In this document: piece by piece, positions 12,292 to 56,499 of the stretch
Layout: every line of letters begins with the position of its first letter
How positions within the stretch are numbered: position 1 is the first letter of the stretch
Origin: Mobula hypostoma
Taxonomy: Eukaryota
Reading direction: 5' to 3'
DNA length: 64,000 bases
Assembly (NCBI RefSeq): GCF_963921235.1
Contig: NC_086097.1
Coordinates: forward strand, 73,038,001-73,102,000
Position numbers and translations under genes: made by a program
The notes under the pieces: model-generated
Database searches by the model: none
What the model was told of the DNA's origin: nothing
The model's input: only the letters and a program-made list of their open reading frames with translations

Positions 12292-14899
12292 GTCTTTCCT
12301 TTGTTAATCATGTTTTCACCTTGATTTGCATCAAGTCATCATCTTTCTTGAGTTGTTTTCTTAACTTCTTTCAGATTTGATGCTGATTGTGGGATTTGAT
12401 CTGAGTTGCTAAACAAAACCTGATTGTTCAGTATGAGTTATCATAGAATTAAATGTCAGAGGAGGAAGAGGTAAAGGATGGTTGATGTTTCCCAAGTCCA
12501 AAACGGTCACTGAAAATTCATTTCTGCGGTGAAAGTATAATTAAGCTGGAAGTATAATTGAAATTTTAATGGCTTGTCAACAATTTGCATTTGTAGCAAA
12601 ACACACAAAATGTTGGAGGAACTCAACATATCAGGCAGCATCTGTGGAGGAGATAATAACATGTACTTAAATCCCTATGGGTGGCAGGCCAAGATGATAA
12701 AAAGGTTCTAAAAGCAGAAGTGGTTTGGGTCTCTACATAGATGAAAAAGATGAAGTTCTAGAAATGTAATAATCACATCTTGGTCCTCAGGGCATGTACA
12801 GTCAGCAATCCTGGCTGCCCTACTACAGGAAGGAAGGAAGGATTTTGTAGGTGATCCAGAGGATGTTTACATCAGCTGGAAATAAGAAGATAAAAGATCT
12901 CAGTTTTCAGGAGCTTGATGTTTAGAAAAGCCTAGTTCACCTCGAGCAGTTGTTAAGGGGGAGGATTGTATTGACAGAGGCAGACTGAATTCAGGTGAGG
13001 ACCACAGTCTGTGTCAGGGGTACAAGAATAGTGCCAGGTTATAAATTCATCAGACTCGGTAGCACTGAAATGGACTACATAGTGGCAGCTGTGTGTCCTA
13101 CTCATTTTCGAAATTCAGTTCCATTGAAGTCCAATGTTGTTTCCAACACAATGTTTCATCTTTTAATGCACTTGAAGAAAATCTAGGAATTTTTTTGTTT
13201 GTTTTTAAAAAGGGGCACAAGAATTTGTATTTACTGTTTATACAGGTGTTCTACAACAAGACAGAGCAGTATACTGGAAGTGAGAGATGACTAAGATGAT
13301 AAGCCTTTCTTTTCCTTTAGCTTTAGTTGTTGAAAGGAAGGGAGAAATGTTTTACAAAAAATAATTGCACAGATTTTCTAAGCTTGAAATATCAGATATT
13401 TAGAGGAGAGAGGCAGTTACTGACAATATTTATAGACTGCTTGAGCTTTGCTTTTATGGCTTTTGTCATTTGATTTCCTTGATAGTGCTTCTAACTGCAT
13501 CTCCAACTTCAGCAGTTGTGTTAATAGGCTGCCATTACCAGCTCTAATAGATTTGATATCAGGCAAACTCATAGTTTTGGGAATAATCCTTGCTGCAGGG
13601 CTGTGTGCTGTGCTTGTTAGTGATGGACTGAGCTAAGCGCAGTAAAGCCGAAAAGTTTCTGTAATCTTTCAGATCAAAGAAAATGTTGAAGTCCCAACTA
13701 TGGTTACAAGGAACTGTCAACTGGCTTTCCCTCTGCCTGACTGTTTCTCTCCCAACTTTTTCCTACATGTGCAGATCTCTCTGCTATTTCTTGTGGTAAT
13801 TGTTCCCTTAATTTGATTGCCTTGGGCTATTTCTTTTTCAGTAGCTTTCTCTAAGCCAGTCTCTCAGTTTGACTCCTGTCATACGCTGCAATATATTTTT
13901 CAGCTTGAAATGCTGATTGGCTGGGTTCAGTTTGTTGTTTGCTTTTCATATGCAACCTTGTCTCCTCATATGTTCTAAATCTGAAATGCTTGCTTGGTTG
14001 ACTGGATTAAGTTGCAATATGAAAAGGCTGCATGTGGCACTTGGCTTTCTAAATTCATTTCTATTTACGAAATCATTATTTAATGTAAGGAATAAGGAAT
14101 GATTTCTATCAGTATGTCCAATTGAAAATGAAACCAAAATGTTCATAGAATGTGATGATGTTACAAATGAGGAAAAATTTGTCTCTTTCCTCCATTTAAT
14201 GCAGAAAATCTTTCGATAAGGTCATTGCAGATCGTTACGGCATTAATTTGGATGAAGTTCTACATAAAACACTGCCATGGCAATTTGAAACGATCACCAA
14301 GCACAGGGCACCATACTTGAACTAGAATTACCCGCAACACTGTGACACAATGGTGAAACCTGTAAACAAATTCTTTACTAAAACATTAGCTGGGCGGTGA
14401 AGCTCTAAGACAGGACAGAACTGCAAACCATTTGTAAAACTAGATGCAAGATGGAATGTTTCAGGTTACAGACTCGTCCTCACAATCTCTTTGATCTGAA
14501 ACCTGAATCCTGATAAAGTGTTTCCAATTTTTTCTCCTCTCATTATACATACATTCCCAGCATCTTTTGCAGTTTTCAATTTTCACCTCATCCAATTGCT
14601 TTTTGTAGAATTTTGTTGACCAAATTAAAATAGTAATTACACCCTAGAAATGCATCTTTGGCAGTAAAATACTTCATGATATCTAGTCAGAATAATAGGG
14701 TGGTAAGTATTTGTTTCTTTGTTTTTCTGTCATTCTGCAGCCCTTGTTGAGTCCTTGCCCTGCTTCCTAAGGACTGATAAGGAGAACAGTGATGGATTGC
14801 TTAAACTCTTGAAACTAAACACACACATTGTTACTCAATAAAATGAAGTCCATCAATGTTGCTCTTTATTGGCTTCTAGTCAATGGCACACTCTCACAC

Positions 14900-15045
14900 T
14901 GGGTGATGTAGTGCTGTAGTTAGTACTTTTGCCAAGATCAATCCTAACCTGAGCTGCTTTATGACCAGAGTTTGCCCATTGTCTCTGCGACCACATACTG
15001 TAGGTTTAGTCCAGGTTGATCCAATTCCTTCCCACACATTAACAG
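14900..15045 (+). mobile_element. Degenerate V-SINE/HE1-like SINE fragment
   Basis: tRNA-like head GTAGTGCTGTAGTTAG..GATCAATCC followed by a decayed V-domain-like TTCCTTCCCACAC. Confidence 0.4.
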
Positions 15046-15364
15046 AATAATCCTTTCTCCTTTTTCAATATTTTTATTGATATTATATAAATTAAATGAA
15101 TACGAATACAAAATTGATAAGGATACAAGTAAATCATATGAATTACATTATATTTACATCACAGTAATATGATCACAATATCCCATATTCCAAATCAAAC
15201 ATGTATAAAAAAAGATTGAATTATGAATTGGAATAGAATAAAATAATTGTATTTATTTTTTTAAAAATCTACCCCCACTACCAAAATGAGCTGGTTGGTA
15301 AAAAAAGAAAAAAAGAAAAATACCTTACAATAATTGACTACTGTAAATTACTCTTCATTGTAGG

Positions 15365-22162: not shown

Positions 22163-25100
22163 GATGTATCCAATGACAGTACTATAATCACTGCAACAGA
22201 GATTCCTAAACTTATCTTTATCAGGTATTGCTTCCAGGTTTCTCTACCAGCACAGGTTTATTCATTTGTCCCTAAAATTAAAAGTATTATTCAAAGTGCC
22301 TTTTGAACTACCAGCAAGCAGTCATATTCATTCAGTAGTGTAATCTTAACTATTGCTTTTTGCTAATAATCCTTAAACTAACCAAAATTGTTTCTGCTTA
22401 TTGTGTGTGAAAATGGTGCACTCGTGTACCGTAACTTTTCAAAGGCTAAATGATTTTGTTTCACTCACCATTAATTGGTTGTAGCATCTGTTAAGGCAGT
22501 CTCTGTCCTGTGATGTTCCACTCATTTATCTCCTGGGATCTGCCTAACCCCTCTTGATAATTTTCCTGACCATCTTGTACTGCCAACTGCTCACCTTTTT
22601 TTTTCCTATCCACCTAATTCTTCTCATCATCTGTTCAGTCATCTCCTGTTATAGTTCAACAAAACATCTGCTGTGACTCCTCTTCCTAGCCCCCACCCCA
22701 CCCATTTGAACTTGCAGTTGCCCATTTTTTTCCCACAGATGTTTTTTGTACCATGTATCACAGGTTGGAAAGCTCCAACCTACAGTTTAGGGAAAGGATG
22801 AAATACACTTTGTAGCTTGCCATGCATTCATTCAACTTGAACACCAGGTGTAATGTATACTAACTAAGTATATTGCTATCTGCCAAAGCACAAAATATTG
22901 ATGCATAGTAAGACTGTACGAGTCCTATTCATTCCACTTTCTTCTACTGCAACTTCTCCATCCCATCTTCACAAGAATTGCATTGTCTTCAATTTATATA
23001 TTCAACTTTCAACATTAATTAGCAAACTAAAAAATTTCAATCTTTTGCCACCTAGTTAGCAAGGAGATATCTAAGAGATAATTACTATTTGATATCACTT
23101 TGTCCATTGTCTTTTATAATTTTTAGTACTGATTGGTAGATCAAAACTTGGTGATATTTTTATGCTGATTATCATATAAACTTGACACATTTTCCCCAGA
23201 TGAAATAACTGAAAAGAATTTTTAATCATCTGAGTTTGTCAGAATACTTTTGAAGCTGGGTAGAAATCCATTTCACCAAGATTTCCATTAAAATCATAGA
23301 GTACTTAATTTTCAAGTGAGTCTGGAAAGCTCTTGTGTATTAGCTAACCTGTACTTTTATGCCTTTGGCTCATTCATGTCACCAAGGAAAAATCAGCAAT
23401 TCTAGTCAATATGCAATAAACAGAAGCTTCAAGCAGATGGCTGATGCATTGTGAGCTGAAGTTAGTACCTTCATCACTTAAACCTTGGCAACCAATATTA
23501 GATACCATCACAACTAGACTACGTAGAAATAGTGTGCTTCGTTCAGGCTGTACTTAGATACATAGGCTTTACATCTCCTCTTGTCCTTCATAAATTGTAA
23601 CTGATTTTATTTCATGGATTTCCAGTTGATTAATGACTGGCAACACATGGTATCATAAAAAACCTTATTTCCAACTAGCAGACGTATGCCTTAACTTGTA
23701 AGCAACCAACTTGGGTTTGTTAGACTTCAAAGTAAAGACAAATTGGAAGTATGGTTCATCCTCTGCAGTCCTGACAGATCATGTCAACCTTGTGATCATT
23801 GGCTGACATCAACTAAATAATGGATTCAACCATTAGGGAGGACAGAGACATTTTAAGGCAAGATTACAACTACCTTGAAAGGGGAATTGTATTCAATCCA
23901 GCCTTCCTGCACAAACTTCCAAACATGTCCAGTTATAAAGCAAGTAGGAAGGATACAATAGGCTAACAATCCTTTCTTTCATTTGTTAATTTTAATTGAT
24001 TCTGCCTCAAATATAATTAAGTTTCAATTCATTGTAACTAGCCTTTGGGTCCCTTGCCAAGAAGACAGTTTAATGGTGTCCCTTTACAGCTTTAGGATTC
24101 CCGGCATGTGCTTTTGTGGGAATAAGTTGTACTAAGTTGTGGGAATATATTTTGACAATTCTCCCAATAATTGGTAAACCAGTACAAATGATAGAGGAAT
24201 TTAAGTAAAATATTTCATCTGGCACGAGGTTAGCTTATGAATCATTTATTATGCCTTAAAAACTCCGTGCCTCTGAAACAGAGCCTGCCCCAAAATTTCT
24301 GCCAGCTATCATTAATTGGCAAAATTCAAAGAAGAACTTGAAATTAAGATTTGTTTTAGACATAAGGAGATATTCTTATGATCATTTAATTTGTTTCAAT
24401 TTGCTGAGAAAAGAATTCATATGATTATACTTAACTATTTAAAGGCATTTTCAGTTCTTATAATCAGATTACAAATGGGCAATATTGTATACTAGGCAAT
24501 GGTAAAATGATGTATTCCTTGTGCTAAAACTGTTTTCTGATATATTAATAAAACTAGGTTACCCCAACCCCTCCTGGATATAATCAATTAAAGATTCTTA
24601 TTCTTTGTTTTTTCCTAATATATATAAAAAATGGCGCAATTGCGCGATTTTAATACAAATTTTACCAATAGGCAATCAAATACTTTTTTTCAGCAATTAA
24701 ATAAATACCATTCTCATTTAATCATATAAATAATTTAAAAATAGATAGTCTCAGTAGTAATAACCATTAAACTACTGGATTTTTTTTTAAATCATCTGGT
24801 TCACAAAAGTCCCTCAGCAAAGAAGTCTGTCTCATTCTAAACTCACCAATATTGTTGACTCTTTATTGCCTCTTCATTACAATGATGCCAGGCTTACCAC
24901 TAACACCCATATCCTGTGCTTGAAAGAAAAATAAGAAATTGGATTCATAAGACTCAAGCAACCTTAAATACTATTTGATTTCAATTCACTGATTATGTCA
25001 ATAACTTCAGGAGTGCATCTATGAAAATCTGGGTACAAGGTTTACGGTCCAACAGATATGCAATCATTGGTGTAAAAGGCAGGTGAAAAGCTACAAATCT

Positions 25101-28100
25101 TCTGCTTGGATTTCCATGTGTTCCTCTATGGGTAGGATTTGTGCTACTGTATTTGAGAACTTTTATCAACACTCCTTCAAATGCAATTCCAAGCATCCGT
25201 TGTTTTTCTTGGAAATCTTTGAGTAAACATAGTCACTTATTACAAGACATAGGATGTTTTGAGCTGATAGAATGACATAACACCGTGGCATTATCTGGAG
25301 ACAAGATAAAGCAGATAAAACAGTTATAGCAAGAAATGAAATCATTACTTATTCCACTAAATGAATATTAATGTTCAGTTAGGGACTGAAAAACGAAATC
25401 ACATTTGGAAAATATAACTTTAGAAATTGTCAGAATGATTTACACCCTGGCTACCATCTTCCAATGTGACCTGCACAGTCCTTGACTGCAGGAATTGTAG
25501 CTACCTTGTTATTGCTGCCGGGAATCATGGAGAGCAGTTCATATCCTTAAAGAACACTCACCATGCTAATCACTCTACAGCAGCATTGGAGGTCGGGGAA
25601 AAGGAAAATATATCGCTTCTGTGGGTGTGGTCTCACACAAGAGACCTCCATGTAATCATCAGCACAGATCAAGCCTTAAGTCATAGTTGGTCCAAGGCAT
25701 TGTGAGTGGCTTACCATTCTTCAAAGATTACTATTGTGCAAACTGCAATAAGTACCGTCTGATCTGGTGCTGATTGTTAAAAACTTAAGCACGCAGATGC
25801 AAATAGTTACGCATCAATGAACTAATGGGGGCCTTCTAATCTGGGTTTTTTTCCTCTTCCCCTTCCTCTTGCCAGAAGGTAAAAAGAAAGGTCATGGTTG
25901 CACAACTTAAGTTGATGAGATGCAAATGAATGTCCTGCCTATGGAAATCATCAATAGTTACATAGATGACACCAGGAAAATGGCCACTATGCATCCAAAT
26001 TGCTTTGTCCAGCTTACTGAAAGACAGGATTTCAATGGGAAATTACAACGGTCACGTTGAAACATGCATGTACAACTGTTGTGTGAAGTTTATTCATAAA
26101 ATACATATGTAAGTGGGTCTAATTTCAAAGTTTTAATTGTTCAACAAAACTGAATGTAATAGTAATTAATTCTTCATATAAAATTATGATTGCTGCAAAT
26201 CCCAATTAACTCTGTTTTCTGATAACAGTGCTCAATTATTTTGCTTAATAATATCTGCCAATTTTTTCTGTTGTCAAGATTCCTGACTCTTTCTCAATCT
26301 ACCAATGCTGGTTATCTTATCTGTGCATTCAATGGATTATGCCTTTTTATGCTTTGCAATTTAAAAATTATTTCCTGTGGGCATTTTATTTCATTTCATG
26401 AATTGTTGTTATTTTTGTTGTTAGCAATACTGCTCTGCTTTATTTCTTGATCTTGTTTTCCTCTATTTTTCTTCCAGTTTCTTATTGCTCTGGAATACAC
26501 CTTTTCTAATTGCACTTCTGAGCTGGAGATAAATGGTAGGCAATCTCGTCTCTGGATTATGCTGTCCCTACTCTCATAATAGCTGTATGAAATTGGTCAA
26601 TCTCCTTCATCATTGTTGAGTCAGACTACTGCAACGACCCGTCTGATGACACTATGGGAATACCTTTCTGCGAACTGCAATAGTTCACACCGAGATTCTG
26701 TCTCCACCCACTTAGGCAGCATCAATGAATGTTGCTATTACCAGAAATACTTGCATAATGCACTTGGATAACTTGCCCTTGAATTCTCCATTCTCTTAAT
26801 TGGGCCAAAAATTTAGTGCAACGTGGACACCTTGTGTTTCAAAATGAAAATGAGTATACTGCAGGGAAGAGTGTTTTATTGCATCTAGATACGGGAGTTA
26901 ACACCTTATCTCACAGTTAGCAGCAGATGGCGAGCAGGCATATCATTACCCTAAGCAGCCAGGCCATGTTGATTTGAGACTTCCAATGCAGTTTGAAGTC
27001 TCTGTTCCCACAAGCAACCTGTTTTAACCTAATCTAACTGAACTCAGTGGTAAGCAATGTGAAGAAATACCCCACCAGATCTACAAGAAGAGATCCTGAA
27101 TAATGTACAAGGAATTTGCTGGATAATTTATTTTGATTGCTGGTACATTAGTGCATATTTAGAGGCTTTCTATACTCACAGAGGTATACTCTCTATACTT
27201 ACAGATAGTGCCTGGTAGGGTTGACAACCTTTTGTAAAATTAATTTTGAAAATCGTGCTGAAAGATGTTTCATGTATTGTCTTTAATGTCATATCCTGGG
27301 ATCTGAACAACAGGAAATATAATAAAGCCAAAAATTTTAAACACATTGCCAGAAGGAAAAAAAAATGGCCTGAGTAGAAGTCCCTGTGCACTTCATGAAG
27401 CATGCCACTTCCTTTAACATCAGCAATAACCAATGCTAGAGATGTCTGTGTTAAACAAGAGGTCATGACTGAAATCTATCAGCTGTTGCGAACACAACTG
27501 AGTATTCAAAACAGGGCATGGAGTGCATTGTTTGTAGCTCTCAAGCAGACTTTGACTCTTCAGGGCTCCAAACCAATGCACAAGATAAAATAAATGAAAT
27601 TTCAAGTACACTGCAGCATAAGGGAGTTTACAGAATTTCTCCATATAATTTGGTACACCACCCATTCAGTTATTCTAGCCTGAAGTCAGTTGAAGGAGTG
27701 AATATGTGTAATTCCATAGACTGCAGATATTGCCATGAAGAAGAATGCCATTGACTCTATGTAGATGCCTTAGTTTCTTCTTCACCTCAGTTTGTGTACT
27801 CTACAACATTTGAACCACTTCCCGTATTTGATCCACTAGCAAAGGTGTTAAAGGGAAGTTAGGCCTATCCCTTAATGGAGGTCATCACTCCAACTAGGAA
27901 TATATGAAGATGGCTGAAGTGGAATACCATGTTGCCACAAGGGGTATTTTACTGAATATCATAGGCATCATTTGAACCTCTAAGATACTCATTTGAGGAA
28001 GCATCAGAATAGTAGTGGCATTCTACACACTACAAAAACTGGTCATGAGCAAGAAATGGTCCTTGCCAGCAACAGTCAACTGATAAGTAAGACAACAATG

Positions 28101-29834
28101 AGAAGGAAAAGATTGCACAGCCAGAAGGGATGCACATTAATCATGTATTGCAATATACATTGGCTGTTTTTACAGATTATCCAATTCAAAACATCTTATT
28201 CTTTGCATCCCTTCCAAATACCACAGCTGATATCAGGAAATTGCTATATAGAATTAAGTTGACTGATCCAGAAGTTCACATTCTGGTGTCAATCTCCACC
28301 TAGAAAATGTATAGAATACAATCACAAAATCCATATTTTAACCCTATAAATTCATGTAACTGGACAAAAACATGGCACATTGAAGAAATATGGAATATCA
28401 TCTTCAAAAATTGCACTGTAGTTCTCAAGGGCCCTGTGATATTTCATAGCTGCCTGTATAGTTGTATTTAAATTGGAAACTTTCACAGGCTATGATTTCT
28501 TGTATTCCTGCATGTATCATGAGTTATTATTCACAGGAGTTCCTTACTCCAGTCTACAAATAAGCACTCAAATTTCTGAAGAATTGTTTTTCATTATTTA
28601 GGTTCTATGTTGCATTTCTCCAACGGGATTATGCTAAGCATAAGAAATGTCAATGTAGCACTTTGATAGGCATTTGTAATTTTGGAGTTCAGGCAGCATG
28701 AAACTAGATTTCCTTTGTTAAAATCAATTGAATGCTCTGAACCAAGTGTCCTCTGCCAAATAATTGCAAATTCAGAAACAAAAATGGAAAATGCTGGAAA
28801 CACTCAGTGGGTGGGGAGAAGAAGAGTGTCACCATTTCAGTTCAACAACCTTTCATCACAACTGGAACAGTGCAATCAAAGGCATGCTTTGAATTGCAGA
28901 ATGGAGTAGGATGGAGAGAATCGAGGGAATATCTGTGATAGGATACACACCCAAGGCCACTGGCAGCTAGAGATGGAAGAGAGAAAAAAGAAAGAAGTTG
29001 AAACTATAAGGTACAACTATATTTGTTCATTTTTTTTATCCCTAAGATTTTTAAATGAAAGTGGACATGTATTCCATACAAATTTACTTACTACAGAGAT
29101 TCGACCATGGAACATTTGGAAATACATTCTGTTCTAGCCAAGAGAAATGACAGGATTATTGAAATGATGAAAGCAGACATAAATTGCCAAGATACTCCTA
29201 CTTCTGTCACATTCTCTTTCTTTTCTCTGTCATAAATCTAGGAGGCATGTTCACTGTATTGCACACGAATCCACTTCTTCAGTTCAGCAACACTCACTCA
29301 GATTTATCCGGCATTTTCCCATGTACAAACGTTGTATGTGAAGCTGATCCATAACTTATCCATTCATCTTCTGCCGTTACTACCATACTTAAACTTCAAA
29401 CATTCCTTCCAAATGTACTTTTCATTTGTTCTACCTTCACTCCAATTAACTATGGACAATGCTGACGTTACACTCTCTTCAATCTTGGCAAGACCAAACA
29501 GAAATCAGCTGAAGGTTTGGCAGAACCAGCACCACTTTAAAATCCACAAGTTCAAAACTGCCAAACCGTCAGCTGATTCCCATTCCACTTGCACACTGAC
29601 TTTTCCATATTCAATTCAATGAAGCTCAGTGTAACCTTGATAAAAATCTCATCTTTCATCATTAACAGCCTTCCATGCTCAATATTAATTTCAACAATAT
29701 TTGCTAGTAATTCTTCCTATGACATCTCATTGAAACTATTTTTTCCTTCTCCACCAGTATCTTTGCCACTTTGCACAGTCATCTCTTTTATCTTTTCATT
29801 TTGCCTGACCATTTCCTTTGTTGTTTACCCCGTA

Positions 29835-39424: not shown

Positions 39425-41256
39425 GTGAAAAGAAAAAGATTGGTTAAGACAAATGTAGGTCCCCTACAGACAGAAACAGGTGAATTGATTATGGGGAGCA
39501 AGGACATGGCAGACCAATTGAATAACTACTTTGGTTCTGTCTTCACTAAGGAGGACATAAATAATCTTCCGGAAATAGTAGGGGGCAGAGGGTCCAGTGA
39601 GATGGAGGAACTGAGGGAAATACATTTTAGTAGGGAAGTGGTGTTAGGTAAATTGAAGGGATTAAAGGCAGATAAATCCCCAGGGCCAGATAGTCTGCAT
39701 CCCAGAGTGATTGAGGAAGTAGCCCAAGAAATAGTGGATGCATTAGTGATAAATTTTCAAAACTCTTTAGATTCTGGACTAGTTCCTGAGGATTGGAGGG
39801 TGGCTAATGTAACCCCACTTTTTAAAAAAGGAGGGAGAGAGAAACCAGGGAATTATAGACCGGTTAGCCTAACATCGGTGGTGGGGAAACTGCTAGAATC
39901 AGTTATCAAAGATGTGATAACAGCACATTTGGAAAGCAGTGAAATCATCGGACAAAGTCAGCATGGATTTGTGAAAGGAAAATCATGTCTGACGAATCTC
40001 ATAGAATTTTTTGAGGATGTAACTAGTAGAGTGGATAGGGGAGAACCAGTGGATGTGGTATATTTGGATTTTCAAAAGGCTTTTGACAAGGTCCCACACA
40101 GGAGATTAGTGTGCAAACTTAAAGCACATGGTATCGGGGGTAAGGTATTGATGTGGATAGAGAATTGGTTGGCAGATAGGAAGCAAAGAGTGGGAATAAA
40201 CGGGACCTTTTCAGAATGGCAGGCAGTGACTAGTGGGGTACCGCAAGGCTCAGTGCTGGGACCCCAGTTGTTTACAATATATATTAATAACTTGGATGAG
40301 GGAAATAAATGCAGCATCTCCAAGTTTGCGGATGACACGAAGCTGGGCGGTAGTGTTAGCTGTGAGGAGGATGCTAAGAGGATGCAGGGTGACTTGGATA
40401 GGTTAGGTGAGTGGGCAAATTCATGGCAGATGCAATTTAATGTGGATAAATGTGAAGTTATCCATTTTGGTGGCAAAAACAGGAAAACAGATTATTATCT
40501 GAATGGTGGCCGATTAGGAAAAGGGGAGGTGCAACGAGACCTGGGTGTCATTATACACCAGTCATTGAAAGTAGGCATGCAGGTACAGCAGGCGGTGAAA
40601 AAGGCGAATGGTATGCTGGCATTTATAGCAAGAGGATTCGAGTACAGGAACAGGGAGGTACTACTACAGTTGTACAAGGCCTTGGTGAGACCACACCTAG
40701 AGTATTGTGTGCAGTTTTCATCCCCTAATCTGAGGAAAGACATCCTTGCTATAGAGGGAGTACAAAGAAGGTTCACCAGATTGATTCCAGGGTTGGCAGG
40801 ACTTTCATATGATGAAAGACTGGATGAACTAGGCTTATACTCGTTGGAATTTAGAAGATTGAGGGGGGATCTTATTGAAACGTATAAAATCCTAAAGGTA
40901 TTGGACAGGCTAGATGCAGGAAGATTGTTCCCAATGTTGGGGAAGTCCAGAACGAGGGGTCACAGTTTGAGGATAAAGGGGAAGCCTTTTAGTACTGAGA
41001 TTAGGAAAAACTCCTTCACACAGAGAGTGGTGAATCTGTGGAATTCTCTGCCACAGTAAACAGTTGAGGCCAGTTCATTGGCTATATTTAAGAGGGAGTT
41101 AGATATGGCCCTTGTGGCTAAAGGGATCGGGGGTATGGAGGGAAGGCTGGTACAGGGTTCTGAGTTGGATGATCAGCCATGATCATACTGAATGGCGGTG
41201 CAGGCTCGAAGGGCCGAATGGCCTACTCCTGCACCTATTTTCTATGTTTCTATGTT
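39425..41256 (+). mobile_element. Young 5'-truncated CR1 LINE with a 544-codon open RT frame
   Basis: ORF 39425-41059 contains KSPGPD, NYRPVSLTS, QHGF, YLDFQKAFDKVPH, GVPQGSVLGP, KFADDTKL and LVRPHLEYC. TAA at 41057 lies shortly before the natural end. Ends with GAAGGGCCGAATGGCCT and a (TTTCTATG)n tail. Confidence 0.97.
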
Positions 41257-41634
41257 GAATTTAACACTAAGATACAGCCCTTTTCTTATTTTTCACATAT
41301 GCAGGTATACAGATAACTGAGTGCCTTTTCTTCATGATTTGTGAGCCAAGGATACTGGAGGGGGAAAGATGGGAAAAGTAAGCATGGCAGCTTTTCCCCA
41401 GTTTATAACTGCTATAACTCAGCCATGTATTAACATGCAGTAAGGTAACCAAGGTATAATATATTTGAACATCTTGCTATGTAAGTTCTTTCTCAAATCA
41501 TGTTGACACAGATATTGCAAAATCTGTTAGATTCCTACAGATCTGTAAGAGGAAAATGGCTAAAAGGGGATGTCTTTTCAATGTCACATTTTAAATCAAT
41601 TTTAAAGTCAATCCATTTAAGTCATTTAATGATT

Positions 41635-41947
41635 TTTTTAGAGGCATCCGTTAGTCTCATAAGATCATGGATTTGCGCCTTGGAAGGTTTCCAGGGCGCA
41701 GGCCTGGGCAAGGTTGTATGGAAGACCGGCAGTTGCCCATGCTGCAAGTCTCCCCTCTCCACGCCGCCGATGTTGTCCAAGGGAAGGGCATTAGGGCACA
41801 TACAGCTTGGCACTGGTGTCATCGCAGAGCAATGTGTGGTTAAGTGCCTTGCTCAAGGACACAACATGCTGCCTCAGCTGAGGCTTGAACTAGCGACCTT
41901 CAGATCACCAGACCGACGCCTTAACCACTTGGCCACGTGCCAACACA
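41635..41947 (-). mobile_element. tRNA-derived SINE with CORE-like middle and RTE-like tail; 12-bp TSD
   Basis: Minus strand: A-box TGGCCAAGTGG, B-box-like GTTCAAGCC, GTGTCCTTGAGCAAGGCACTTAACC, tail GAGACTAACGGATGCCTCT-polyA. CATTTAATGATT occurs at 41623-41634 and 41948-41959. Confidence 0.88.
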
Positions 41948-43544
41948 CATTTAATGATTAGCCATGCAAAAATAGTCTTCGCCTTTCATAGCTTCCCTAA
42001 CTGGCATACTCTCATATTCCTTGGGGATAGGTGCTGGCAGTGGATATCAGGTACAACATTGCAGAAGGACATACATGATGGAACACATCACAGATACAGG
42101 GCAGCAGTTACACATATGCAACATTAGGAGGTAATTTCACTTGCTGGGTTTCACATAACCTGTCCACCATGTTGGTTTCTTGGTCTTAATATGCCCCAGG
42201 CAACATAGAGTCACTCAATGCTTTACATTTGGTATAGCTGTTTGATCACTAGATGAAGCTACAGTAGCCTTTTCAAAGCCCGTACCTAACATTCAAAGCT
42301 CTCAGTTAGCTTCTTTAATAAGTGCTTGACTGTGATCTTTCAGTCTTTGTTCTTTTCTTTTGCAGATAGATTTTTCTGCATTCAAAAATTCCAGGGCTGC
42401 AATTACTGGAACTAATTCCTAAGTTTCAAAAAGCACCTCATCCATATGTGAAGGGAGATATTTTCCACCATTGTGCTTCAAGCAGGAAATTTCAGATTCT
42501 GATTGGAAACCACAAAGTTGAGGCAGAAGGACTCTCATTTCTGCATCCAGTATGTGTGGGAAATTGCTTCTAGAATGATTAAATTGAGCCAAAACTCCCC
42601 ATGTTGCTATTGTCCTGCAAGGGATATCATCTACCACTATTACTGTAGATTAAAGTAATGAAGACAGCTATAAATTGCTTGGATTTATATAGCACCTTTG
42701 ATGATCTCAAAACATACCAAAGCACTTAACAGCCAATAAATACAATTAATTGAAAACCTAGTGCATTAAAATATTTCAGATAGGAAATTAAATCTCTTGG
42801 ACTGCTTTTTAATAACATTTTTAAATAATTGCAACACATGACTTTAGCATGGTAATACTTATGACAGCAGGTTAATTTTATGATACCCTCCTTTTCTCGA
42901 ATTCCTGATAGCATTTCAAGCAATCCACTCACTGTTGTATCAATAAAGACAGTTCAATTATAAATAGAAGCTGATCTTTTTGGCTTAAAGCCTAGGAGCA
43001 TTGCTACATCCATCCACGCAGTGATCCACTGCTGAATAAAAATTGACAGGAGACAATTTAGTAAGCAGTCTAATGACTTCATAGTAATATTTATAATGAA
43101 AATGCTGCCTACTGCCACTGTGTACGATTCACATAACATGCAGCCTGCATACAAAAGAGCTTTCAGCAGTAAAATTAAATGTAATTAACTAATGAAGCTT
43201 CATGAGCGATAAAAACCAAATAATAGGACTGATAGTAAGAGCTATAAAGCATTGGTGGTGACATTCTGGAAATAATGCTGAGGTACTTAGATCATGAAGA
43301 TCTATACAGGTTAATTAAGAATGATGATTTCTATCCTTTTCCTCAAAATTTAACCAGAAAAATTTGTTACACTGCATTGTTCATAAAGCACATTTGCAAG
43401 TTTTGATGTAAAATTTGTCATTTAGGAGGTGCTTGGCCAGACAATGTACTGTTGATGAAGTCCAGGACAGTTTTGGGATACCTAATAAAAGGTAAAAAAA
43501 AACCTTTTTAACGTCCACTAACAGAGTGCTTTCTATATAACTTG

Positions 43545-44442
43545 CTTGGGTTAAAAGCAAATAGTGTAGAAGATACAGGAAGTCTGCAGAGAGATATAGA
43601 TAGGTTAAGTGAATGGACAAGGGTCTGGCAGATGGAGTACGATGTTAGTAAATGCGAGGTCATCCACTTTGGAAGGAAAAATGGAAGATCAGATTATTAT
43701 TTTAATGGTAAAAAAATGCAGCATGCAGATGTGCAGAGGGACTTGGGAGTACTTGTGCATGAATCACAAAAGGTTGGTTTGCAGGTACAGCAGGCAAATG
43801 GAATGTTGGCCTTCATTACTAGAGGGATTAAATTTAAGATTAGGGAGGTTATGCTGCAACTGGACAGGGTACTGGTGAGGCTGCATCTGGAGTACTGCAT
43901 GCAGTTCTGGTCTCCTCACTAGAGGAAGGATATACTGGCTTTGGAGGCAGTGCAGAGGAGGTTCACCAGGTTGATTCCAGAGATGAGGGGGTTAGACTAT
44001 GAGGAGAGATTAAGTTGCCTGGGACCATACTTGCTGGAATTCAGAAGGATGAGAGATCTTATAGAAACATATAAAATTGCGAAAAGGATAGATAAGATAG
44101 AGGCAGGAAAGTTATTTCCACTGGTAGATGAGACTAGAACTAGGGGACATAGCCTCAAGATTTGGGGGAGTAGATTTAGGACGGAGATAAGGAGGAACTG
44201 CTTTTCCTAGAGAGTGGTGAATCTGTGGAATTCTCTGCCCAGTGAAGCTACAGAGGCTACCTCAGTAAATATGTTTAAGACCAGGTGGGCTAGATTTTTG
44301 CTTAGTAGAGAAATTAAGGGTTATGGGGAAAAGGCAGGTAGGTGGAGATGAGTCCATGGTCAGATTAGTCATGATCTTATTGATTGGCGGAGCAGGCTCT
44401 ACAGGCCAGACGGCCTACTCCTGCTCCTATTTCTTATGTTCT
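43545..44442 (+). mobile_element. CR1 3' fragment
   Basis: ORFs 43542-43922 and 43941-44210 (LQRDIDRLSEW..KCEVIHFG..QRDLGVLV..LEYCMQFWSP..QRRFTRLIP). Tail TTTCTTATGTTCT. Confidence 0.92.
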
Positions 44443-44449
44443 CTGCCTG

Positions 44450-45729
44450 CTCTAGATCTTTTTTCTCTTGAATTCAGCACTCCTTTCTCCTCCTCAACCC
44501 TTACCACCCCTGAGCGCACTGCCCCCCACTCTCTCCACACCAATCCGAACCTTACAGAAATCCACAGACAAAGAGGGTGCTGTTGTGGAGTGGTGCACTG
44601 ACATCTACCTTGCTGAGGCCAGGCAGAACCACTCAGACACCTCTCATACCCCCCTCGAGGAGGACCCCTCTCCAGATCATCAGAAAACTGTCTCCGACAC
44701 CGTCGCTGACCTCATCCACTCTGAAGAGCTCCCATCCACTGCTGCCAAACTCATAGCTCCCTTACCCTGCATTGTTCACTTCTACCTCCTACCCAAGATC
44801 TACAATCTCGACTGTCCTGATAGGCCTATTGTCTCTGCCTGCTCCTGCTCCTCTGAACTTGTGTCCTCATAGCTTGAGTCAATTCTATCCCCTTTGGTTT
44901 AGTCCCTTCCTACCCACATCTGCATCACTTCTCACTTCCAATTTCCTGGCCCTGACTGCCTCATCGTCACTCTGGGTATTCAGTCCCTATACAGTTCTAT
45001 CTCCATCAAGCAGCCCTCACACTCTCCACTTCTTTCTTAACAAAAGAACCAACCAATACCCCTCCACCACCTCCCTCCTCCGTCTGGCAAAACTGGTCCT
45101 CACCCTGAACAATGATCCCTTTGGCTCCTCCCACTTTCTCCAAACTCGTGCAGTAGCCATGGGCACTCATATGAGCCCCAGGTCTGCCTGCTTCTTTGTT
45201 GGCTACATGGAAAAGACCATGTTCAAAGTCCTCCCTGTTATACTCCCCAATTCTTCTTACACTACTTTGACAATTGCATTGGCACTACTTCATGTACCCA
45301 AGCCGAGCTCATTAATTTTATTAACTCTACCTCTAACTTCCACCCTACTCTTAAATTAGCTTGGTCCATCTCTAACACATCTCTCCCCTTTCTCAATCTC
45401 TCTGTCTCCATCTCTGGAGACAAACTGTCAATTGACATCTTTCATGAACCTACTCATCCCCATGGTTATCTGGAATATACCTCTTTGCACCCTATCTCCT
45501 GTAGAAAATGCTATTTTCTTTTCTCTGCCACATCCGTTCCCAAGACGTGGCTCTCTGTTCCAGGACATCAGAAATGTCCTCCTTCTTTAAATAACGGAGT
45601 TTCCTTCCCTCCATTTTTGATGCTACACTCATCCACATCTCCTCTATTTCCCGAGCATCCGCGCTCACCCCATCTTCCCGCCACCTTAACAGTGATAACG
45701 TTCCTCTTATCCTTGCCTATCACCCCATC
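44450..45729 (+). mobile_element. Penelope-like RT region, decayed
   Basis: TDKEGAVV; FYLLPKIY..DRPIVSAC; FLQTRAVAMGTHMSP..FFVGYME; NFHPTLKL; GYLEYTSLHP. Confidence 0.9.
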
Positions 45730-45953
45730 AAAGTTCAAATTTCCAAGTAAATATTATTATCAAAGCACATATATGTCACCATATACAATCCTGAGATTCA
45801 TTTTCTTGCAGGCATACTCAGCAAATCTATAGAATAGTAACTGTAACAGGATTAGTGAGAGATCAGCTAGAGTACAGAAGACAGCAAACTGTGCAAGTGC
45901 ACATAAATAACCAGAATATGAGGTAAAAAGATAAAGAGCCCTTAAAGTGAGAT
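45730..45953 (-). mobile_element. Rex1-type 3' UTR fragment
   Basis: Reverse complement of the tail at 20640-20731 and 30420-30498 (GAATCTCAGGATTGTATATGGTGACATATATG..TTTGAACTTT). Confidence 0.8.
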
Positions 45954-46832
45954 CACACACAAAATGCTGGAGGTACTCAGCAGGCCAGGCAGCATCTATG
46001 GAAAAGAGTACAATCAACATTTCGGGCTGAGATCCCTCAGCAGGACCGGAGGAAAATGCTGAGGAGTAGAGTTAAAAGGTAGAGGGAGGGGAGAGAGAAA
46101 CACAAGCTGATAGGTGAAATGAAGAGCTGGGAAGTTGATTGGTGAAAGAGATACAGGGAGGGCTGGAGAAAGGGGAGTCTAACAGGAGAGGGCAGAAGGC
46201 CATGGAAGAAAGAAAAGGGGGAGGAGCACCAGAGGGAGGCAATGGGCAGGTAAGGAGATAAGGTGAGAGAGGGAAAAGGGGTTGGGGAATGGTGTAGAGG
46301 GGGCATTATCGGATGTTTGAGAAATCAATGTTCATGCCATCAGGTTGGAGGCTACCCAGACGTAATATAAGGTGTTGTTCCTCCAACTTGTCATCGTGAC
46401 AGTAGAGGATAGACATATCGGAATGGGAATGGGAAGTGGAATTAAAATGGATGGCCACTGGGACATCATACTTCTTCTGGCAGATGAAGTGTAGATGCTC
46501 GGCGAAGCAGTCTCCCAATCTACATCGGGTCTCACCGATGTACAGGAAGCCACACCGGGAGCACCAGACACACTAGATGATCCCAACAGATTCACAGGAG
46601 AAGTGTCGCCTCACCTGAAAGCACTGCTTGGGACCCTGAATGGTAGTGAGAGAGGACGTGTAGGGCAGGTACAGTACTTGTTCCACTTGCAAGGATAAGT
46701 GCGAGGAGGGAGATCAGTGGGGAGGGACGAATGGACAAGGGAGTTGTGTAGGGAGCGATCCCTGTAGAAAGCAGGAAGTGGGGAGGGAGCAGGGAAGGAT
46801 GTGCTTGGTAGTGGGAATCCATTGGAGATGGC
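45954..46832 (-). mobile_element. Penelope-like GIY-YIG endonuclease and pseudo-LTR
   Basis: FYRDRSLHNSLVHS..TYPCKWNKYCTCP; LGDCFAEHLHFICQK..PVAIHFNS..KLEEQHLILRLGSLQPDGMNIDFS. Confidence 0.9.
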
Positions 46833-47048
46833 TGCACCTATCACTTTCCGGCTAGCTTCCTTTCCCTCCACCCCACCTCACCCTCACCTTTTTATTCAGG
46901 CATCTTCCCCCTTTATTTCCAGTCCTGAAGAAGGGTCCCGATCTGAAACATTGTTTATTCATTTCCATAGATGCTGCCTGATTTGCTGAGTTCCTTCAGC
47001 ATTTTGTGTGTGTTGCTTTGGATTTCCAGCATCTGCAGATTGTCTCAT
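46833..47048 (+). mobile_element. Penelope pseudo-LTR copy, inverted relative to 45954-46140
   Basis: CAGTCCTGAAGAAGGGTCCCGATCTGAAAC..AGATGCTGCCTGATTTGCTGAGTTCCTTCAGCATTTTGTGTGTGTTGCT. Confidence 0.85.
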
Positions 47049-47684
47049 GTTTATGCTTTTTATATTAGTTTTAAACAGAGTTCCTAATTTTTTTTTGGAG
47101 TTTTACTGTGTGAACAGCCAAGTGTTCTTTTGGAAAGCTCGCCTTACCACAGTGTGAAGGAACTTAGGCCTGGTGCAAGTGGCATTTCTGATCATTTGTA
47201 TACCGGTCATCGAACTGCGAAACTGCAGACTACTGTAGGTGCACCATGCTTTTTGTTGCAAAAGGAAGATGGAGAGATGGATAAGAAGAAGTTGAACGGC
47301 ATATTTGGAATATTAGCTCTCCTTTCTAGGCAGGAATGGGGCTAATGAGCAGTGAAAATGGAACTTCATGCATGAAAATATGGATCCTTTGGAGGGCGGC
47401 ATGACCCTTTAACTGGGACTGATAGGGAAGAAAGCACTGATTAACCACTCCTTCAGTCAGTCAGACCCAAGCAAGTTGGTGGGCACTGGAAAGCACTCAA
47501 GGGTCCAGCTTTTGCATCCCAGTCATCCTCCCTCATGAGTAAATTTCAGCCTTCAGTGCCTTGGACTTTTCTCTGACACTGGTCCAAGCTAATCTTCAGA
47601 GATACCTCTTCCTACTGTTTACATATTAGGCAGAGATGCTTTTCATTGTCCTGCCAGCACCCACACTGCATCCGGAGTCCAGAA

Positions 47685-47967
47685 TGTACTGGTTAGCGCA
47701 AGCCTGCTACAGCTCAGGGCATCAGAGTTCAGAGTTCAATCCCAACGTCCTCTGTAAGAAGTTTCTGCATCCTCCTTGTGGAATGCTTGGGCTTTCTTCG
47801 GATGCTTTGGTTTCCTCCCACAGCCCAAAGACGTACCGGTTAGTAGGGTAATTAGTCACTGTAAATTGTCCTGTGATCAGGCTAGGGTTAAGTTGGGAGG
47901 TGCTGGCAATGTGGTTTGAAGGGCCGAAAGGACTTATTCCGTTCTGTCATCTCTAAATAAATAAATA
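47685..47967 (+). mobile_element. V-SINE (HE1-like) tRNA-derived SINE
   Basis: TGGTTAGCGC..GAGTTCAATCCC head; V-domain GGTTTCCTCCCACAGCCCAAAGAC..GGGTAATTAG..TAAATTGTCC; CR1-like GAAGGGCCGAAAGG; (TAAA)n tail. Confidence 0.82.
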
Positions 47968-49417
47968 GTTTATTGGATGCTCGTAGACTGGCGGTGATTT
48001 CGTCCTCATGAATATGGAGAGCCATGAATTTTAATTGTGTCCCTTCTGTCAGACTCTGGTGGGCGAAGAAACCTGCAGAGTTTTCAAAGGACTTGCAGAT
48101 GTCTGTTCTGTGTAACTTGCAGAATTTCCTGTGTGTCGTCAAAGGTCCACCCAAAGAAAATATGGTCATGTAGAAATTTTATCATATGCTTGAACAATGA
48201 ACGTGTATTTAATAGCAACTACTATTCATAATTACTTCACATTATATAAAGTATACTGCTAAAACTAAAGTAAAACCAGAATAAATTTATGGAAAACTAT
48301 TTAACACGATCACTAAAAATAATAAGCAAGTAGCACCCACTCTTCCTTGAAATTATAATTTGTTTCAACTTTCTTTTTTGTTCTGATATTTCTCACCTTA
48401 GATTAATTAACATCTTGAAAAATAACCATGAACATAAACAAAGGAAGAAAATATGATAATCAAAGCAGTGTTAACACATTTTAAAAACTGACAAATCTCA
48501 TTGCTGAAGCAGAATACATAACCTAATAGAAAATCTGTTTAGAATCATGCAAAACGCAACATGTCAAATAACATCAATTATGCTCCAATGAGGCGAGTTG
48601 CCTGCACATTTTCAAAGGGATTTTTATTTGAATTAGTGATGCTATATTTGGATATGACTTCATTCTTTTTGACCCAATGGTCCAGGAGTAGGATACAGAT
48701 TTTAAATCTAAATCTGTGACAACTGCCTTTGTTCACACCTTCATTGTGCACTTAGTGCAAAAAAGTTTCACAAATCAGGAGGAGCCAATATAATTTTCTA
48801 TCCAAGTAGATAAAATGTTGAATTTTCTGCAAAAAGCACGATGAAATATTTAAGGTTATCAAGAGCCACGGATAAGTTAGTGAATGGGAGGAACCGTGGC
48901 TGATACAATCCAATCTGGATAATAGTTACAGGAGGAATTTACAAACGGTAGAAGGAATCCAATGAATGGAACCTATTTCTGAGGTGTGATGTGTATCACT
49001 TTGGCTCGGTCCATTTTTAGTCCTCCTTGTTTCATTAGAAATGTATCTTACTCACACCTTTGGAAAAAAGATTTGGGATCCCATTTTAGTTGTACATAAA
49101 AATAGGACAAGATACACTATCTGTATCCTTGCAAAACTGTTGAAAATCACTGCTGAAGTCAAATAAGAAAAGACCTAGGACCCTTGAATTTTTTTTTTTA
49201 TGAGGCCAGCAAAGGTTGGATGCTCTAGTGCATGAAGGTTGAATATTCTAGCATTTATTAGCTTCAGTTGGGATCATCAACTCACCTTTTTCCCAAGTTT
49301 GAAAAAAAGTATTGACAGTCACTACATTACTAGAGCAGAATACATAGCTCAATAAAATAATCTGTTTAGAATTGTGCAAAACACAACACATGAAATAACA
49401 TCAATTATGGCCTAATG

Positions 49418-49498
49418 TTGGGGTTCCCAACCCGGGGTCCACAGATAACTCAGTTATTGGTATGGGTCCATGGCATAAAAAAATGCTGGGAACCCTTG
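49418..49498. mobile_element. ~80-bp MITE, probably hAT superfamily
   Basis: Imperfect terminal inverted repeats GGGGTTCCCAAC / GCTGGGAACCCT; flanked by GCCTAATG / GTTTAATG (possible degenerate 8-bp TSD). Absent from the paralogous copy at ~48590. Confidence 0.7.
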
Positions 49499-50759
49499 GT
49501 TTAATGAGGCTAGAGGGCTGCACAGAGGGATCTTTATTTGAATTGGTGTTGTATTATTTGGATCTGGCCAGCTGACTAGATCTTGAGTTTCTCACCACCT
49601 TGTCTGGGGCTCAGCAGTGACATTGAAGTGAGAGGACAGACCGATCAGCACAGAGACAGAAGGGGTTCAAACAACACAACCTAGTTTATGCAAAATAATA
49701 TTTAGCAGACTGCCCCTGGAACACTGTATACAGTTTGCGGCTGTTCATTTGGTCACACAACACAATCCTTAAATGATTGTCCCGAATGCAACAGTTATTG
49801 TCCACAACCAATATTAAATACATTTCATTGTTTTATCTGTTATTCTACAGAAAGAAAACATCAAATAATTTCTCATATTTAGAGATACTGTATTGTGTAA
49901 CTAAATCACCAATTTTGACATAGTCTATGATCTCTGCAATAGTGCTGGTGATGGTTGTACATAGGTTATCAGTTCAGCAGACGTTGTTGGAGTATTTGTA
50001 GATTTAGTAATGTTGTTTCATCCTCATTTCCATCTGAAATATTGCAGTTTGACTCTTTTTGATTTAAAGTTAGTCTTGCATGAGAAATACCTTCCAGTTC
50101 CTGTTCGACTTTTCTCTCCAGTATAAATCCCAGGATTAAGTTAATAATGTATACTTTATAGAACTTCACTCCAATTTTCAAAATAATTCCCTGTCCAATA
50201 TAGGAATTGCTGCCTTTCCCCAATGTGCTAGCTCTCCATCTCAGACATGCCTGGAGCTCTTGTACATGAAACAAGGCAACTGAACCCTAGTGTCATACAA
50301 CTTGTACAGTACAGCTTGTACTGCAAGCTTTTTTTATTTTCATTTCCTCTCCTCCACAAATCTGAACAGGAAAATAGAAAAGTTCGCCACACACTGTCTT
50401 CATTTTAATTATTTTCAACTATACTGCATGATACTTTTCAGAATATTTGCTTGTGGTTCCTTCATGTAGTTACCCCCTGCTTCTATTTCATTTAGCCTTG
50501 GGTGCTGGGCAATGCATAGAGTCTGTGACGAAATGGACTCAAAGTCAAAATCGTATTTATTGTCAGATGCACACGTGTGCACAGGTGCAGTGAAAAGCTT
50601 GCAACACAGATATTTAGCATCAAATCATCAGCTTTCGCAAGGAAAACAAATCAAACAAAAATTATAAATACAAGAAATTCTACAGATGCTAAAAGTCCAG
50701 AGCAACAGGTGCAAAGTGCTGGCAGAACTCAGCAGGTCAGGCAGCAGCCATGGAAGTGT

Positions 50760-53056: not shown

Positions 53057-54304
53057 ATGTATGGGATTTTTAATTTGACCTCAATGAACAGATGAACTAA
53101 ATTGCATTCAGTGGATTATTTCAGTACTTTAGTGTGGATTAATTAATATATATATTCATATTTATCTTGTTAAATCATGAATTAAATATGAATTGATATC
53201 CTGAAAATATAGAAACTGCAATAGCTGGGAAGAATTTTGAAGGAAGTAGACTATCTCATTTTTTCATTGTTGCATTTACATTAGTTGTAGGGTATTTTTG
53301 TGTGAAGACAAGTAATGGGAATTATCATCAAAAAATCAAAATGAGTATCAAAAGCTAGCTTCCAAAATGGAAAAATCATGCAGATAATTAATAAAAGTTC
53401 ATAATATTTTCTTCAAAAACATTGGCCTTTGTCATAATTACCTTTAATTACTGGTTTTAATTGTGCTTCTAACAACAAGAGCCTTCATGAGGCAAAACTG
53501 TGCTACTGTAATATGTTGCAAGGATGCTGATGGTCATATTTTTATGGTGAGTACTAAAATGTGCAAGTTCCCAAAAGAAAATGTTATTTGAGCTATTGTG
53601 TATTAGGAATTTTTTCAAAGATAAATGTCACTTGATACGATATTGTAATTTTTTTTGGAAAACTAGATTTAAACATTAATATTATTTTTATTTCTATGAC
53701 TTCATCTGTCCTTCTAATTTATTATATAATATTGGTTCAATGTAAAATAAGTTTAGTATCTGACAAGTTAGCCTGACAAATTAATTCAGTTTCATTCTCC
53801 ATAATTGCTGACAGACTCACTGACTGTATCATATTCATTGTAAATTTTCCAGATCTGCATTGCTTTGGTTTTATATTACAGAGAAGTGACTTGTGTGCAA
53901 CAAGATCTTCTATTGCATCTAAAAATGAGCTAGTGATTTTTCCAAATTACAGTCCTTCAAAATCTCACTGTGATTGTTTTTCAGGCACACTGTTAGGAAG
54001 AGGTGCCACAATAAAATGAAAGCAGTAATAAAATGAAACCTGCAGTAATAGATTCAGGATACCGGCTATCACTGCTATGGCTCTCTCTAGCTGCCCATTC
54101 ACAGTATCTAAACATATTCAATCAATGTCCTAGCATTAAAATCACATCCTCTCCAAACTCCCAGAGGATTATGTTTTCTCAGCAAAGGGATCAGCTTGAA
54201 TTTTGAGTACTCTTAGCAACAGAAGTAAAAGCTTTGTAGAGATTGATTGAGGGTGAAACTTGAATGAAGACCTGCTGGTGCAATGAAACAGATTAAACCC
54301 ATGC

Positions 54305-54522
54305 TGAGAGAGGAGGAGGCAGAGAGAGATAACGATATAGAGAGAGAGAGAAAGAGAGAGGGGGAGAGAGAAAGAGAGAGGGGAGAGGGAGAGGGAAGAG
54401 AGAGTGATGGAGAGAAAGAGGGGAGAAGGAGAGGGGGGGGAGAAGGAGGGAGAAGGAGAGAGAGGGAGAGAGAGAGAGAGAGAGGAGAGAGGAGGGGGAG
54501 AGGGAGAGAGAGACAGATAGAT
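54305..54522. repeat. Imperfect (GA)n polypurine microsatellite
   Basis: About 220 bp made almost entirely of G and A. Confidence 0.95.
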
Positions 54523-56499
54523 GAAACAAGTGCTGGGAAGGTATAGTGACATAGTATTTATGCATTCTTCTTCACTTTGATGTGTTGTTAATATACCGTG
54601 CACAAAGTTGTTGTTTGGTTGTGACTGTTACCTATTGCAATGGGTGGCTGTAGTCCAGAATTAACATCTGTGGCTGTGGCCACACCAGGTTGTCGATACT
54701 ACCATTATTGATGTCATGATTTAGAAGCCACTGTACTAATGACTAGGTTTGATAGCTATTTGTACACAGATATCTATTTTTTGCCTTCATAGCCACTTGA
54801 CTGGATGGAGTTGTTTATATGTCAAGGAATGAATGCAACTGAGAAGTAAGACCTGTCTGCACTGTGAGTGAGGACAACCACAAATTAGCAATGCTAATTG
54901 ATTGCATTATTTCAGAGAGAGAATAGAAAAAAATTAAGAAGTTGGAAAAAATGAATGTGTGTCAGGGAAAACATTCCCACTAGCACATTGTTGGAAATGG
55001 GAGAGGTTGGAAGACTAGGGATTTTGGATTATGGATTTTATGGACCTATCCAACAGGTGTATTTTGTTTCAAAGTTTCAAAGGTACATTTAATGTCAGAG
55101 AAATGTATACAATGTACATCCTGAAATGCCTTTTCTTTGCTGCTTTCTCTTTCTCTTTGTTCCTCAAGGTACAACTGCTGCTTCCTCTCACGCACTGACC
55201 TCAGTGGAATTGTCGGAATAATTGGAATGGGAAAGCATGCAACAGTAAAAACCTACTGCATGCTGCCAAATGGATTAAAATATTGGCAATGATTTATTAC
55301 TCAATTACAACTGAGAATTAGAAATTTACTGAAAATTGTTTGCCGATATTTTTTTAAACAGCATGTCTAATCTAACTTCCAGAAATCTCAGACCTACATT
55401 CTTATTAATAGCATGAATGGAACAATTAGCTCATTATTTTGTCACTTAACTTGTCTTAAAAGATGATGTGTAATTCTAATTTTTTTGCATTTTAATGAAT
55501 TATAAGTTGTTTATCCTGGTATTCTGATCAAACATTTCAATACTAATTTAATTAATCAATCTTTTATATATCTTTGTTATACTGTAGAGTGAATCATGGG
55601 TTATGTTTTCATTGCCAATATTCTCTGCAAATTACCAGTGCAAGCTAGTTAATCTGGTATGATATTAATTATTTGAGATCTGTGAATTTCGCAACCTTTT
55701 AAAAGATAAAAGATAAAGTAAATTGGGTACAATAAGAGAAACAGTAAATTGAGTCACAAAAGGAAATAACAGCTTCATTAGCAAGTTCCAATGTAATAGC
55801 TTTGATTTAATGTGTAATTTTTTGTATTTCCAGTCTTCTTAACTTCAACCGCTAAACCTTATTGGCTTTGATCTTGTACCTTTACTTATTGATGTGGGAA
55901 TGGAACTGCAGTTTGCTAGCACATGGAATCACTTGCACTTTGCACTTAACGTTTGAGAAAAAGGTAGAATTAGCAGAGGATTTCCTTAAGAATTTCCTGC
56001 TGGGTACGATTGCCATCAAGAAATACATCTTCTGTGTACCAAAAGTGAAGTACGCAATAGAATTAAAAATAAGAGAGTTTTCATTGGGATTGCCAGCTAG
56101 GAGTTTTAAAAGACAGATAATCAGACAGGAATGCATAGCATATGAGCATATGGGTAGGAGGTGGACACAGAATTGTTGAAATCCTCAGACAATTTTATTT
56201 TCATTTGGAACAACAGATACTTTGGTGATGACTAAGTGAGAAATGTTATCTAAAATGCCAAGTGAAATTCCTGATCTTTTTTTCAGATTGTGCACAGGAT
56301 ATTTTGTGTTCACCTGATCGAACAGAGGGTCGCACTTCAACTCTCCTTCCAAAAACATCACCATTGATAATGTGGCCAGTATTTTATAAAGAAAAGTAGA
56401 TCCCTCAATTTTAATCTTTGAACTTCTCAATTCAAAATCTGTCTTTTGATGGGAAAATTTACACATGATTATTTATGTTTTCCAATAAAGAGAATTATA

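Follow-up and report, generated by a model that had tools for sequence, protein, structure and literature searches.

A candidate multi-module VWA3-like gene fossil between transposon remnants in Mobula hypostoma

We analyzed a 64-kb window of Mobula hypostoma DNA (contig NC_086097.1, 73,038,001 to 73,102,000, forward strand; all coordinates below are positions within this window), in which an initial annotation had proposed that a candidate region of ∼43 kb on the + strand (13673..56400) holds the decayed remains of a VWA3-family gene. We find that ordered chains of family motifs on this strand score above shuffled and scrambled controls, and that the stretch 22800-29200, by its stops, frameshifts and neutral divergence, has no function as a protein gene today. 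The region is probably a VWA3-like fossil of some sort, whether of an unusual multi-module gene or of the ordinary type. The unusual gene, its tandem modules numbering at least three to five, is on balance an evenly poised proposition, and seven or more modules are doubtful.

VWA3A and VWA3B carry about 2-3 modules, laid out as linker words followed by the strand-helix words of a vWA domain, and both have a vWA domain of the canonical metal-ion-dependent adhesion site (MIDAS) type. Bacterial (Planctomycete) VWA_3 domains (PF13768) served as a proxy for their sequences. Masking bears out the claim that non-transposon DNA persists between the transposons: unique sequence, lying between transposon remnants, makes up ∼18-20 kb of the 43 kb. 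The masked window leaves 20,428 bases, and a stricter mask leaves 17,650 bases inside the candidate region.

Ordered motif chains on the + strand

We scored short motifs in order, with rough spacings assumed for the family, and compared the resulting chains with 150 local dinucleotide shuffles and 100 scrambled motif orders. The four best non-overlapping + strand chains sum to 22.2 bits, a value equalled by none of the shuffles and none of the scrambled orders; the sum of the best eight was equalled by 1/150 shuffles and 2/100 scrambled orders. The top-four sum is lower on the minus strand (13.7) and in reversed DNA (5.0). The ranks that exceed the shuffles are 2-3 with intron jumps and 2-5 without them, while ranks 6-9 are not above the controls. 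When only the wording of the initial annotation is used, the top-four and top-eight sums are reached by 0/200 and 3/200 shuffles, and by 21/200 and 22/200 once the exact words ASRY and WKxGS are removed. The vWA half by itself is reached by 4/150 and 11/150 shuffles.

The supported chains are 23550-24270, 25804-26570 and 54987-55400, with weaker ones at 13624-14340 and 26801-27500. The best vWA-half chain (54987-55400) falls outside the spans drawn in the initial annotation, so that the circularity of the test is lessened, not removed. The proposed repetition of one motif order has tentative backing from the leading chains taken together. The proposed 7-8 modules were not confirmed: just 3-5 chains rise above chance, and 35615-47240, 48040-50200, 53300-54250 and 55834-56400 are at chance level. 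An earlier rank-4 chain, which passed through the tail of a HOOK retrocopy, was lost under the stricter mask. The blocks that carry the leading chains are as follows.

13624..14480, + strand: candidate module remnant, rank-4 chain; 4.2 bits (1/150 shuffles) without intron jumps, 1.8 bits (36/150) with them; no Pfam or PDB match
from 14206, + strand: candidate exon; helix of the G-x-N-L-x-x-x-L type; the frame changes near 14300
23626..24450, + strand: candidate for an entire module within a single block; words stop-L-A-T-H-G at 23634, WKYGS at 23744, LILID at 23986, ALK word at 24244; chain 6.6-8.2 bits
25804..26570, + strand: candidate module start; stop-L-R-I-N-E-L at 25804, stop-K-T-G at 26018, donor at 26109 (score 3.6); chain 6.6-7.9 bits
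26620..27670, + strand: candidate module; ASRY at 26881, donor at 27050, FNVISW at 27282; chain 3.3 bits (0/150 shuffles at rank 5) without jumps, 1.3 bits (24/150) with them; no Pfam vWA match
54987..55400, + strand: best vWA-half chain; LGILD at 55015, AAKWIKIL at 55262, P-E word at 55370; 9.6 bits (0/200 shuffles) and 10.9 bits (2/150)

The later chain words of 25804..26570 fall in DNA that is rich in T and resembles an intron, and could be chance matches. A single frame through 27150-27671 holds 5 stops in 174 codons, and 54987..55400 is broken up by a repeat fragment at 55074-55137 (self-BLAST).

Decay in related species

Relatives were compared over 22800-29200, organisms C, E, H and I each contributing one sequencing run (X9, X11, X16 and X18); of 24 runs listed, 19 from 10 studies contain part of this stretch, and none of those listed is an RNA run. 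The four relatives cover it at 4.1, 6.6, 7.4 and 7.4% divergence, and it is single copy at 80% likeness across the 6.4 kb, bar one repeat tail. This tail, at 28768-28812, is a high-copy element (depth 180-700 in the relatives) inside the claimed module 26620-29200.

Pieces rich in claimed exons diverge no less than their flanks (Spearman +0.56, 28 non-independent pieces). Details of single changes are drawn from 12 of 102 indel entries and 40 of 722 substitution entries; these indels include, inside claimed exons of X11, deletions of 1, 14 and 1 nucleotides (nt), the 14-nt deletion being common to X18. This lack of conservation, together with the frame-breaking indels, indicates that 22800-29200 is not under coding selection in these species. 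Disrupted frames and a lack of purifying selection, two marks of an unprocessed pseudogene, are thus found over this stretch, and the claim that the element has decayed is confirmed there.

Two indels have a bearing on the modules themselves. One extra base after 23715 in X11, X16 and X18 (not X9) brings the words at 23634 and 23744 into one frame (110+1 nt apart), as the motif order of the initial annotation demands; it is a single event and lends support that is little more than a coin toss. At ∼27971, 32 nt are present in all four relatives, and in X9 this sequence is stop-free in a frame that was picked by eye and not recorded beforehand.

Results that weigh against a VWA3-like gene

A series of results weighs against this interpretation. 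The chain words and spacings are assumed ones, chosen after the translations had been read, which makes the chain test partly post hoc. The single best + strand chain is equalled in 11-18 of 150 shuffles, the minus strand holds a chain just as good (7.5 vs 7.2 bits), and the linker half by itself shows no excess (23/60 shuffles). Some of the words reported by the initial annotation are indeed present (WKYGS, ASRY, FNVISW and, at 23634, W-L-x-x-x-G with a stop in place of W), but bare motif-word counts are not enriched: 88 on the + strand, 86 on the minus strand and 73-104 in 12 shuffles. By eye, two different frames often match the family pattern equally well, indicating that eye matches are overfitted.

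Database searches gave no match to the family. In Pfam, neither 42 + strand chunks, translated across their stops, nor 22 hand-cut pieces matched a vWA family, in a scan of low power that cannot cross frameshifts; the same scan detects the HOOK retrocopy in 3/3 pieces (best E 2.7e-16), indicating that it is able to see a younger fossil here. With a single frame of 23600-27199 as the query, phmmer returned 0 matches among 1.84 billion proteins. Word searches with 26643-26858 (proteins up to 2000 residues) and 55868-56176 returned none, PDB searches with pieces of the window returned nothing relevant, and the ESM Atlas returned nothing at 0.9, a result that shows neither novelty nor absence. The single-sequence AlphaFold2 model of 27150-27671 has no strands, at a confidence too low for the fold to be read (predicted local distance difference test score 44.1, predicted template modelling score 0.23).

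The bacterial proxy was equally negative. Domains confirmed as VWA_3 members (42-57 bits, 3/3 tested) were used for profiles of 72 and 146 sequences, which were scanned with codon-level, frameshift-tolerant models. Over the + strand of the whole region these profiles do not exceed shuffles, and over the eight spans of the initial annotation the result is null in 8/8 (combined z -0.89 and -0.26); a block-chain version of the profile was equalled by 49-54/100 shuffles. The best-scoring + strand windows fall mostly within those spans, with scores not above shuffles. A VWA_3 profile signal above shuffled controls, one of the checks proposed by the initial annotation, was thus not obtained with this distant bacterial proxy, whose power for degenerate modules is low. 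Used as a protein query, a bacterial VWA_3 domain retrieved 6 VIT-vWA proteins only, and from the PDB ITIH1, ITIH4 and one other. Of 151 Planctomycete genomes, 141 carry one C-terminal VWA_3 subtype, with up to 27 matches each.

How this null should be read depends on the kind of domain. Simulated vWA domains that start at 50 bits or more were recovered in 47/47, 41/47 and 22/47 cases at decay 0.25, 0.35 and 0.5, compared with 13/39, 3/39 and 4/39 for those starting below 30 bits. A canonical MIDAS-type vWA domain was not detected by the frameshift-aware bacterial profile in any of the eight spans, and, given the high recovery of the stronger class, the presence of such a domain, if only moderately decayed, is unlikely. 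The profile mostly misses degenerate modules; these, and decay that has gone further, are compatible with the null.

No residual coding signal was detected over 18,348 bases (z 0.87, 36/200 shuffles, + strand not enriched), in a test of modest power that also misses the HOOK fragment. The initial annotation spoke of good splice sites, and some plausible GT/AG sites do lie at block edges (23316, 26109, 27050, 32398, 33420 and 55833); by a crude weight matrix, however, strong sites are not enriched on the + strand (acceptors 5 vs 3 on the minus strand, donors 5 vs 10).

These findings are what would be expected if there had been no gene at all, and a VWA3-minded reader had found words in AT-rich intergenic sequence that evolves neutrally and in the debris of old transposons no longer recognisable as such. 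Under this alternative, the nulls of the database, profile, fold, coding-potential and splice tests, the like motif counts on both strands and the parity of the best plus and minus chains all follow directly, and the uniform neutral divergence fits equally well. Against it stand the advantage of the true motif order over scrambled orders on the same DNA (0/100) and a best vWA-half chain that is not among the spans first drawn. The top-four excess also survives in a wider word set without the two exact words (0/150 shuffles), though not as clearly in the original wording (21/200). We regard the absence of any gene as unlikely, while a contender of real weight. The assignment to the VWA3 family, for its part, draws indirect and partly circular support from the chains, and from one frame-joining base, against the lack of any database or profile match.

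Comparison with VWA3A, VWA3B and known pseudogenes

A tentative likeness of the candidate to VWA3A and VWA3B is that their linker-then-vWA layout occurs in order on the + strand in 3-5 chains. It differs from them in having no Pfam VWA_3 match, no detected canonical MIDAS domain and no open frame. Because no canonical domain was detected, we do not assign the element to the VWA3A/VWA3B family. A decayed gene of the ordinary VWA3A or VWA3B type with 2-4 modules, or a set of tandem partial copies, would require no expanded paralogue, and the 3-5 chains above chance are close to the 2-3 modules of these proteins. This explanation is improbable in our view: a canonical domain, which both proteins have, was not detected where simulated domains of at least 50 bits are found in 47/47 cases at decay 0.25 and 41/47 at 0.35. 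Exon size points the same way. Human VWA3B has small exons, codon 984 lying in exon 22 (PMC10524275), whereas the candidate blocks are ∼800 nt, a difference that argues mildly against a plain VWA3B orthologue.

Block size bears as well on why open reading frames had missed the element. The initial annotation put this down to exons that are short and broken; the frames are broken, but the core blocks are not short, at 800 nt or more. The only natural open frame of more than 100 codons within the claimed module blocks is 55856-56179, the remaining frames of this length being transposon frames or frames spanning block edges.

Like unitary or unprocessed pseudogenes in general, the candidate has disrupted frames, transposon insertions and neutral divergence common to related species; unlike typical ones, it has no identified parent or orthologue, and its decay is too deep for a coding signal. 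A third alternative is that the fossil derives from a different kind of coding sequence, either an unrelated gene for a repeat protein or an old transposable element (a long interspersed nuclear element, LINE, or a DNA transposon), and that its pattern of hydrophobic strands and helices imitates the chains. We hold this to be very improbable: the G+C of the candidate blocks (0.38-0.46 vs 0.27-0.30 in the flanks) would suit any formerly coding DNA and LINE remnants lie at the edges of the first repeat mask, but none of the candidate pieces matches a Pfam family of whatever kind with an E-value that carries meaning, and the sequence is single copy at 80% likeness in the four relatives.

Proposed history and significance

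If the region is a VWA3-like fossil, its unique DNA would be what is left of a single + strand gene, dead for a long time, which encoded tandem modules, at least three to five of them, each made up of a short linker and then a vWA domain of degenerate type. These modules may have arisen by internal duplication, several of them each contained within a single block of ∼800 nt. Death of the gene would predate the divergence between the window's species and organisms C, E, H and I, and the LINEs and the HOOK retrocopy, which are inserted among the unique blocks, would have arrived after it.

The living protein, by analogy, would most likely have been a component of motile cilia or sperm tails. PMC7331728 places VWA3A in a human motile-cilia expression signature (chicken in situ hybridization was negative), and PMC12310455 reports VWA3B in wild-type respiratory cilia and its reduction in DNAH5 patients; PMC7329947 contributed nothing on architecture. 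A more speculative scenario, which we consider rather unlikely, is that of an undescribed third VWA3 paralogue with at least seven tandem vWA modules in large exons, present in early jawed vertebrates and lost in the ancestor of this cartilaginous-fish group; intact copies, missing from annotations, may survive in other lineages, sharks and chimaeras among them, and act there as a giant scaffold of motile cilia or sperm tails. Among the papers listed by literature searches on VWA3A, VWA3B and VWA3 in sharks, and by broader searches, with subscription journals, genome annotations and supplements outside their scope, neither a VWA3 paralogue with many modules nor the loss of one is mentioned.

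A dead gene alone changes little, and the value of the finding hinges on a living orthologue. If the interpretation is correct, this is a gene loss invisible to open-reading-frame, Pfam and protein-database searches, and it points to an intact long VWA3-like protein to be sought in other fishes. VWA3A and VWA3B are poorly understood cilia-linked proteins, and a many-module relative would help define their repeat unit.

Other blocks and self-similarity

The remaining blocks of the region, some claimed as modules by the initial annotation, are listed below.

25010..25800, + strand: candidate module by eye only, unsupported; best local match of one bacterial profile at 25514-25621 (18 bits), equalled in 26/40 shuffles
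27700..28550, + strand: candidate further module by eye; the window lacks the 32 nt found in the relatives
35615..50200, + strand: modules 5-6 of the initial annotation, unsupported; scattered unique blocks among transposons, chance-level chains, profile z -1.5 to 0.9
53300..54250, + strand: module 7, unsupported; chain -0.3 bits, profile z ∼-0.1
55834..56400, + strand: module 8, unsupported; holds a natural 107-codon frame (55856-56176), chain ∼0 bits; no match in ESM Atlas, word search, PDB or Pfam

Module-to-module similarity on the + strand is slightly above the null and marginal, the top-ten sum being reached by 5/39, 1/46 and 4/38 shuffles in three runs; the run giving 5/39 used scoring that was too permissive (controls scored higher). 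Single-frame self-alignment gave 29 vs 16 pairs at score 45 and 1 vs 0 at score 55, and a search for third copies added nothing (5/38 shuffles). The alignment of 28227-28373 to 52273-52419 scores 68, higher than any other of the 320 block pairs tried and than the controls, whose maxima are 60-64, but is absent from the top 20 of an unbiased scan. Within the span 48040-50200 there is a short local duplication (48499-48656 / 49325-49417).

Two + strand blocks outside the earlier spans, 32290-32397 and 33421-33470, are small and are bordered by a donor (32398) and an acceptor (33420) that both rank high and would join them in frame. By eye they resemble consecutive vWA elements, and they topped one profile scan at only 2 bits.

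Sequence surroundings

The window consists of vertebrate DNA rich in transposons, whose repeats look like those of ray-like cartilaginous fishes, and has a CpG island near 59 kb (58900-59900). A candidate first exon there ends in ATGG, followed by GTACGG, near 59310, with a second candidate donor near 60652; the first exon gave no identity for the gene within the window.

The first span of the initial annotation (13673-23315) contains, at 15952-16424 on the + strand, a processed pseudogene: a copy of the 3' part of a HOOK gene that lacks introns and is broken. It matches positions 361-508 of PF05622 (Pfam) in three frames (E 4.3e-6, 2.7e-16 and 5.8e-5). A LINE reverse-transcriptase frame of 545 open codons at 39422-41059 (+) looks to be the youngest insertion in the span. 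Upstream of the candidate region, gag-like and pol-like frames at 5084-6325 (+) and 313-768 (+) belong to a frameshifted long terminal repeat retrotransposon, which we take to be of the Gypsy type.

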